The notes below the pieces were generated by a model, which had not been told where the DNA came from, searched no databases, and saw nothing but the letters and a program-made list of their open reading frames with translations. Shown here piece by piece: positions 13,944 through 15,133 of a stretch of DNA of 25,073 nt. The position numbers and the translations under genes are program-made. Source of the stretch: Candidatus Nanoarchaeia archaeon (lineage in GTDB: Archaea > Nanobdellota > Nanobdellia > Pacearchaeales > GW2011-AR1); NCBI GenBank assembly GCA_035290605.1, contig DATDUA010000001.1:1-25073 (forward strand), read 5' to 3'. The first letter of the stretch is position 1, and the number at the start of each line of letters is the position of its first letter.

Positions 13944-14162
13944 TCACTCTCTCTTAATATAGTATGCATGGGATGCAAACTTTTTGCCGCATTTTTTGCA
14001 GAGCCATATTCCTTTTGCCAGCCTTTTTAAGGATTTTTTTTGGCAAAAAGGGCATAACTGCTTTTTCCTCTGTTTTTCCTCGATGCCTGTCAGCTTTTCC
14101 CTGACTTTTCTCCCATACTTGGGGCCAAATCTTCCCGCTGCCTTTACTTTAGATGTTCTCAT
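13944..14162 (-). CDS. rpl37ae: 50S ribosomal protein eL43 (L37Ae)
   Basis: AGRFGPKYG..VR and the zinc finger CPFC..GIW.CKKC. ATG 14162 preferred over 14219. Confidence 0.93.
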   Translation of the reverse strand: MRTSKVKAAGRFGPKYGRKVREKLTGIEEKQRKKQLCPFCQKKSLKRLAKGIWLCKKCGKKFASHAYYIKRE

Positions 14163-14188: not shown

Positions 14189-14257
14189 TCTCATGAAGTC
14201 GCTCTGCTCGCGACCTCACTCGTCGATATTATTTTAGTTATTCTCGTGAAGTCGCTC
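14189..14257. repeat. Two-copy 16-nt direct repeat in the tRNA-Pro trailer
   Basis: TCTCATGAAGTCGCTC (14189-14204) and TCTCGTGAAGTCGCTC (14242-14257), 15/16 identical, 37 nt apart. Confidence 0.8.
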
Positions 14258-14259
14258 GA

Positions 14260-14368
14260 TGGGGCTGCCAGGATTTGAACCTGGGTCGCATGCTTTTTCG
14301 CAACCAATCCTTTTGCCAGGATTTGCTCACCCAAAGCACGAAGCATAACCAGACTGGCCCACAGCCCC
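14260..14368 (-). tRNA. tRNA-Pro(UGG) with 35-nt intron at canonical position 37/38 (intron 14295-14329)
   Basis: Acceptor stem GGGGCTG/CAGCCCC with A73, T-arm CCAGG-TTCAAAT-CCTGG, anticodon stem CGTGC/GCATG, loop TT-TGG-G|A. Intron 3' end CGAA-AA pairs with positions 32-35 as in a bulge-helix-bulge. CCA not encoded. TATA at 14402-14409. Confidence 0.93.
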
Positions 14369-14419: not shown

Positions 14420-15133
14420 CTACTTCTTTGCAGTCTTTTCTGCCTTTGCTTCTGGCGCTTTTGCTGCTGCCGGCTGTGCTGCGCCTGCTCCTGCTGCCGG
14501 CGCACCTGCTGTTGCTGCTGTTGCAGCTTTTGCAGCATCTTCTGCCTCTTTCGCTGCCTTCTCTGCCTCCTCTTTCTTAATAAGCTCGTCCTGCTTTGCT
14601 TTTATAACTGCGAAATATTCCTGCAATTTCTTTCTTTTTTCTTCGCTTAATTCTGTTTTCTGCCCAGCAATCTCGCTGTCATACTTTCCAGCGTCTATAT
14701 CTTTCTCAATATCCTTAGGGCTTTGGTCTTCTATTAAAATGCCAAGGCTGACGCAGCTTCCAACAACTGACTTGACTGCTGACTTGAAATCCTTGCACAG
14801 CATTCCAGGCATCTTTGTCTTTGCAACAGATATAACCTGCTCAATTCCGGCATTTCCCACTTTAATCTTTTTATGCTCTCCAGAGCCCTTCTCCAGCCCG
14901 AGCTCTTTTTTCAGCAGCTCTGCCACAGGAGGCGTGAAGACATTTACCCCAAAGTTTTTTGTCTTTGCATCAACATCAATCTCAACCGGCACTTTTATTC
15001 CCTTAAATGATGCGGTTGCCTTGTTAACATCCTGTATAACCTTTCCAAGATTTACACCCAAAGGGCCGAGCTTCTGGCTCAATGCTGGTCCCGGCTTCAT
15101 GTCTCCTGCATCAATTATAAGTTTTATTTTCAT
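14420..15133 (-). CDS. rpl11: 50S ribosomal protein uL11 with approximately 80-aa C-terminal extension
   Basis: PGPALSQKLGPLGVN, G.KVPV, TPP..ELLKKE and VVGSC.S.G motifs, followed by a charged helix and an Ala/Lys/Pro-rich tail. Confidence 0.93.
   Translation of the reverse strand: MKIKLIIDAGDMKPGPALSQKLGPLGVNLGKVIQDVNKATASFKGIKVPVEIDVDAKTKNFGVNVFTPPVAELLKKELGLEKGSGEHKKIKVGNAGIEQVISVAKTKMPGMLCKDFKSAVKSVVGSCVSLGILIEDQSPKDIEKDIDAGKYDSEIAGQKTELSEEKRKKLQEYFAVIKAKQDELIKKEEAEKAAKEAEDAAKAATAATAGAPAAGAGAAQPAAAKAPEAKAEKTAKK

Follow-up and report, generated by a model that had tools for sequence, protein, structure and literature searches.

A 12-nt T-arm match within the tRNA-Pro(UGG) intron of a small DPANN archaeon

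Background

Canonical archaeal tRNA introns, which interrupt the gene between positions 37 and 38 and form a bulge-helix-bulge (BHB), are 11-129 nt long according to the part of PMC4090602 consulted here. The same part describes the tRNA-Trp(CCA) intron as a conserved box C/D guide of ~65 nt that is antisense to its targets (PMC4090602). Copies of tRNA 3' ends also arise as att duplications of tyrosine integrases; such copies lie downstream of the gene and run to the end of the tRNA (PMC8371274). In Caldiarchaeum, intron gain has been found together with a mobile element (PMC3293823), and routes of intron arrival have been tested in Asgard archaea (bioRxiv 10.64898/2026.10.13.758758). The arrival and the sequence source of archaeal tRNA introns are an open question (bioRxiv 10.64898/2026.10.13.758758).

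The intron described here raises the same question of intron-sequence source as the Asgard study. It lies in a 25,073-nt stretch of DNA (the window) from G000, a small archaeal genome of the DPANN group (712,551 bases in 114 contigs, 66% complete). In position, 4-bp central helix, 3-nt 3' bulge and length, as in its free interior sequence and patchy gain and loss, it resembles the canonical class as presented in the consulted part of PMC4090602; it differs in a G-G mismatch that widens the 5' bulge (a relaxed, hBH-like form). Twelve of its nucleotides are identical to the T-arm of its own tRNA, a feature not described in that part of the source. With the tRNA-Trp(CCA) C/D intron, as described there, it shares its position and a sequence relation to its own tRNA, but the copy is in the sense orientation, sits in only 35 nt, is boxless and is not conserved. 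As in att duplications, the repeated stretch begins in the T-loop, a known crossover region; unlike them, the copy is inside the gene, upstream of its source, and has neither the acceptor end nor an adjacent element.

Results and discussion

The tRNA-Pro(UGG) gene and its intron

The gene occupies positions 14368-14260 of the window on the minus strand (Rfam RF00005, 42.6 bits; no other Rfam family is found at the locus), and is part of a housekeeping string in the order ftsZ, spt5, L11, tRNA, L37ae, prefoldin and sepF. Both immediate neighbours are also on the minus strand: the L11 gene upstream (14420-15133; Pfam PF00298 and PF03946) and the L37ae (eL43) gene downstream (13944-14162; PF01780). 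The L11 protein has an Ala/Lys/Glu-rich tail of ~77 residues past its Pfam domains (14654-14420).

The anticodon stem CGUGC/GCAUG and the loop UU-UGG-G identify the tRNA as tRNA-Pro(UGG). The RF00005 match, manual numbering and the fold of the spliced tRNA place the 39-nt 5' exon (positions 1-37) at 14330-14368, minus strand. The 3' exon (positions 38-73, CCA not encoded), placed by RF00005 and manual numbering, is at 14260-14294, minus strand. Between them is a 35-nt intron at the canonical 37/38 site (14295-14329, minus strand), bounded by the anticodon stem and the BHB helix, inserted one base 3' of the anticodon; the cloverleaf is restored once it is removed. ARAGORN likewise reports a 35-nt intron, although its placement is off by 3-4 nt and the gene is labelled as Phe.

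The 4-bp central helix of the BHB is formed by intron CGAA (14297-14300, minus strand) and U32-U33-U34-G35 (14335-14332), with all four UUUG/CGAA positions paired. The 3' bulge is 3 nt and the exon helix is strict, while the first intron pair is G-G, giving a larger 5' loop; the first intron position is likewise unpaired in 15 of 102 introns. Nearest-neighbour calculations place the BHB fold 7.7 kcal/mol above the minimum; the median for the introns compared is 3.1. The fold that outcompetes it by this amount is a slipped register at the splice sites, involving G37 and intron nt 1-3 and 27-30 and leaving the 12-mer aside. Judged by these sequence features, the intron is an ordinary canonical 37/38 archaeal tRNA intron with a relaxed, hBH-like BHB, and it would be excised by the splicing endonuclease at this slightly relaxed motif. 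The endonuclease domain PF01974 was not found in G000, which has about 20 introns, or in the 88% complete genome of the sister species (G002); since the other congener, G001, has one, as do three further family members, this gap is probably due to genome incompleteness.

The 12-nt match and its probability

The sequence TGCCAGGATTTG is present at 14266-14277 and again at 14314-14325, as the original prediction had observed. Both copies are read on the minus strand in the same orientation, 48 nt apart, and the exact match is not extendable on either side. In the RNA the repeated stretch reads CAAAUCCUGGCA. CAAATCCTGGCA represents both tRNA positions 56-67 (the 3' part of the T-loop, the 3' T-stem strand and the first two bases of the acceptor 3' strand) and intron nt 5-16, where it makes up the 5' arm of an intron hairpin and most of its loop. 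All 109 bases of the gene are identical in G002, an independent assembly whose flanks are 95-96% identical, and this excludes an assembly error.

The chance that a 35-nt intron of this kind matches its own exons over at least 12 nt is 1.2e-5 by shuffling (12 of 1,000,000 shuffles), 8-9e-5 under genome Markov models and 7e-5 among non-tRNA 35-mers (3 of 40,590). It rises to ~3-4e-4 when genomic 74-nt windows are used (7 of 19,161, a count that may include the T-arm itself), because words frequent in G000 make up the intron: AAATCCT occurs 430 times and GGCAAAA 401 times, against ~87 for an average 7-mer. The earlier estimate of about 1e-4 is thus of the right order for a single intron, but it ignores the number of introns surveyed. 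Within its own partial genome the intron has 11 matches of 12-13 nt, four of them longer than the T-arm match. Three of the 11 are in the window: in the T-arm, in ftsZ (13 nt) and, 290 nt away, in the L37ae gene (12 nt). The L37ae match (intron nt 11-22; 14010-14021, minus strand) is in the protein-coding part of that gene and serves as a control for word commonness. The whole 12-mer is also found on another G000 contig (C106), and a viral contig has 18 nt of the intron in an apparently coding sequence.

These counts bear on the possibility that the match is a coincidence, a hairpin of common genomic words that happens to give one 12-nt match among thousands of surveyed introns. The frequent words, the 11 genomic matches, the recurrence on C106 and the viral 18-mer all favour it, and a per-intron chance of 1e-5 to 4e-4 multiplied by a few thousand introns (an estimated number) predicts between 0.03 and about 1 such match. 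The low per-intron chance argues against it. Coincidence is a serious possibility, though we put it slightly short of even, and it is nearly as likely as local copying, to which we return below.

Relatives and other introns

Among the genomes compared, the intron copy of the 12-mer was found in the two sister species only. In G001 the orthologue is intronless and its T-stem differs (CCAAG/CTTGG). In 15 other tRNA-Pro introns, drawn from the family, order and class, the match to the exons of the same gene is just 3-7 nt long, although four of them belong to tRNAs with the same CCAGG/CCTGG stem. In 185,579 genomes, a search for CAAATCCNGGC at a distance of 20-50 nt before the matching T-arm, which covers only T-arms of the CAAATCCNGGC form, gave 11 matches. 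One is the sister genome (L063, deposited as Candidatus Woesearchaeota, with the same downstream sequence as G002), and the other ten are either simple repeats or duplicated tRNA 3' parts that do not lie in introns. No intronic T-arm copy of this form was therefore found in other lineages among these 185,579 genomes, and the lack of recurrence is consistent with coincidence. A related Pro intron (L040) contains CAAATCC, so that 7 of the 12 bases might have come down from an ancestral intron, which also favours coincidence.

Among 148 canonical introns parsed, mostly from the same family, this is the only one with an own-exon match longer than 8 nt. The longest matches of the other 147 are 3-8 nt, equal to those of reversed and reverse-complemented controls, and none of ~21,600 cross-pairs between other introns and foreign exons reaches 11 nt. 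There is no general self-match excess among these 147 introns (P 0.43-0.75), no shift in gapped local alignments of introns against their own exons and no excess of intron matches to flanking DNA. Since neither exon nor flank matches are in excess among the surveyed introns, copying of the T-arm is no common route.

Three other relationships of the intron sequence were considered and rejected. Homology with the tRNA-Pro(AGG) intron of G049 (GAGAAATCCTTGGCAAA, shuffle P 8e-4) was set aside because that intron was selected by BLAST with this query and 0.9% of unrelated long intron pairs score equally; moreover, it does not track its own T-arm and is closer to another intron family. The five matches to a possible viral donor are one coding-like sequence without a tRNA. 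Derivation from a 168-nt dispersed repeat was dismissed since just 10 nt are common to both. When metagenomes were searched for intron variants, a single gene came up, and its 15-nt intron is unrelated. In an L11 tree (read without labels L016, L024, L028, L033, L034 and L045, which were parsing errors), introns are scattered among intronless relatives; since most deep forks are unresolved, gain and loss are not separable on it.

Several further features of introns, tRNA genes and repeats were observed in the course of this work. The ~168-nt dispersed repeat is at 23661-23829 of the window, has at least nine copies in G000 at 98-99% identity, often at contig ends, and shares TGGTTGCGAA with intron nt 24-33. 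A ~65-nt repeat just behind tRNA-Ala(CGC) (20595-20659) has 11 further matches in the genome, seven near full length. Directly behind tRNA-Pro, G000 and its sister G002 carry unrelated inserts of ~70 nt (G000, 14189-14259 of the window) and ~140 nt (G002, L002) in DNA that is otherwise 95% identical; on this comparison the site is an insertion hot spot. The sister species differ by about 9% at third positions, and the introns that distinguish them include a Ser(GGA) intron longer by 30 nt and a wholly replaced Ser(GCU) intron (C53 and C112 of G000 against L229 and L239).

Closely similar introns are present in different tRNA types and genomes: L148 and L137 (Arg, Thr), L151 and L120 (Met, Thr), and L005, L253, G000 C44 and G002 L239 (across Pro, Cys and Ser tRNAs). 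Their similarity suggests intron transposition in this group, a process described for Thermoproteales. The G000 introns on C10, C81 and C112 have AGAACC(A)AAGGTTCT in common. Pro(UGG) introns of 44-55 nt with a TGAGG or TGAAG start and a CTCGAGA motif (L034, L040, L042, L044) are scattered over four genera, other members of which mostly have no match; this hints that the family spread laterally or was lost repeatedly. Glu/Gln-like tRNA genes with D-arm insertions (G000 C35:2338-2447 and C90:3007-3112; L210) apparently contain non-canonical introns misplaced by ARAGORN. Adenine at the tRNA wobble position is unusual in archaea, and genes for such tRNAs, Leu(AAG) and Pro(AGG), are found at G000 C47:4363-4446 and in L005, L008, L009, L030 and L043.

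Folding of the precursor

The copy had been proposed to act as a decoy or folding switch, its CCUGG vying for the 5' T-stem strand (CCAGG, positions 49-53; 14280-14284, minus strand) and thereby controlling folding, modification or splicing. A 5-bp helix of this kind is geometrically possible. In nearest-neighbour calculations, as distinct from probing data, the T-stem strand pairs with its native partner and the copy is held in the intron hairpin (AAUCCU/AGGAUU with a GGCAAA loop; 14306-14323, minus strand), the inner pairs of which have probabilities of 0.97-0.99. At 15, 25 and 37 C the calculated probability of the decoy pairs is 0 after rounding, forcing the helix costs 10.1 kcal/mol over the minimum, and decoy pairing is at most 1e-4 in nascent-chain truncations. 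The intron is unchanged between G000 and G002 (0 of 35 positions differ, whereas four other introns that can be aligned have 17 differences in 217; P about 0.06), a point in favour of a function, but this is unremarkable, other introns ranging from 1/73 to 5/33. The 12-mer is also missing from the 15 other Pro introns, including the four that keep the same T-stem, a distribution at odds with the proposed competition and one that the original prediction had itself named as counting against it, and the G001 gene manages with no intron at all. A functional decoy or switch is thus scarcely credible.

A guide function finds no sign either: the 35-nt intron contains neither box C (RUGAUGA) nor box D (CUGA), and its longest antisense match to the exons, as a guide to the tRNA body would need, is only 6 nt. 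The 12-mer is very probably functionless, and we take it to be neutral.

Integration and tandem duplication

A second proposal was that the copy is a trace of integration, an integrase att-site relic, or of a head-to-tail duplication that made the intron. Integration is known to use the T stem-loop as a sub-site (PMC8371274), and mobile elements have been linked to intron gain (PMC3293823). However, the att-like copies observed elsewhere are all downstream and run through the acceptor end, whereas the intron copy is upstream and stops at position 67, and the 20 neighbouring proteins scanned are housekeeping proteins with no integrase among them. The downstream copies observed here start near the T-loop, 40-60 nt or more behind the gene (L054-L057, L059, L060, L062 and L211), and are mostly from DPANN and halophilic archaea; in G013, tRNA-Pro is followed by two of them.

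Two features point towards a head-to-tail duplication: at 35 nt, intron and 3' exon are equally long, and intron nt 2-6 (GAGCA) repeat positions 37-41, a 5/5 agreement seen in no other of the 148 introns. A copy of positions 37-67 with a 15-nt deletion between two CA dinucleotides would fit. Against this, the repeat spacing is 48 nt and not the intron length, and identity is only 7-10 of 35 in any register, so that head-to-tail duplication is rejected. The collapsed form requires an added base, a deletion and a 19-nt rewrite with 15 nt still perfect. The extra GAGCA bases weigh little because TGAG opens three unrelated Pro(UGG) introns whose exons differ there. Together, an att relic or a duplication that made the intron is very unlikely. 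What survives of the suggested origin by local duplication is a short copying event, which is plausible and about level with chance.

Local copying and the L090 intron

We consider it an even call that the 12-mer arose by copying. In its favour, this intron stands alone among the 148 with its own-exon match, and no cross-pair comes near that length. DPANN genomes often have local duplicates of the segment that begins at the T-loop, and introns turn over fast between G000 and G002, one having gained 30 nt and another having been wholly replaced. Against copying, introns show no general excess of self-matches or flank matches, the 12-mer has no junction signature, the preceding GAG is the usual Pro(UGG) intron start at this locus, and two neighbouring genes, L37ae and ftsZ, match the intron over 12 and 13 nt.

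An unexpected control came from the survey, in an intron that was not chosen for this property. In the L090 intron (693-764; G423:C31), which belongs to tRNA-Arg(UCG), the 18 bases directly upstream of the gene recur as an exact inverted copy, so that leader and intron could form an 18-bp helix enclosing the 5' half. No shuffle in 20,000 reaches 18 nt against the 2.3-kb locus, and the cross-pairs predict fewer than 0.01 such cases in the intron set. The L090 match is stronger than the T-arm 12-mer match. Local copying into introns thus appears, from this sequence, to occur in the family; the copying rate that it suggests (1/147, with wide limits) is above the chance rate for 12-mers and speaks against coincidence at the tRNA-Pro locus. 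The two copies are alike in beginning 4-7 nt inside the intron, after opening bases (TGAG, CGAG) that related introns also have. As support for copying at tRNA-Pro, L090 is limited by being a single locus, inverted, AT-rich and leader-derived, in a genome (G423) for which no congener was available.

The proposed model for copying is as follows. One local event of templated copying, presumably a template switch in the course of DNA replication or repair, would have written positions 56-67 into the interior of a fast-changing intron. This event would be younger than the split from the intronless G001 and older than that from G002. More generally, and more tentatively, the interiors of DPANN introns may now and then be rewritten by short templated copies drawn from within about 50 bases, from their own exons or leader and in either orientation; we hold this broader idea to be possible, at somewhat less than even chance.

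Conclusions

By itself, the tRNA-Pro(UGG) locus offers a single 12-nt match with no sign of function and matters little. If the 12-mer is a copy, however, matches between introns and their own genes could be counted over all archaeal introns, which would be a cheap test. If intron interiors are indeed rewritten in this way, short local copying would be a source of intron sequence for which the cited archaeal-intron literature holds no test, and the introns of tRNA-Pro(UGG) in G000 and tRNA-Arg(UCG) in G423 would be two fresh examples of that rewriting.
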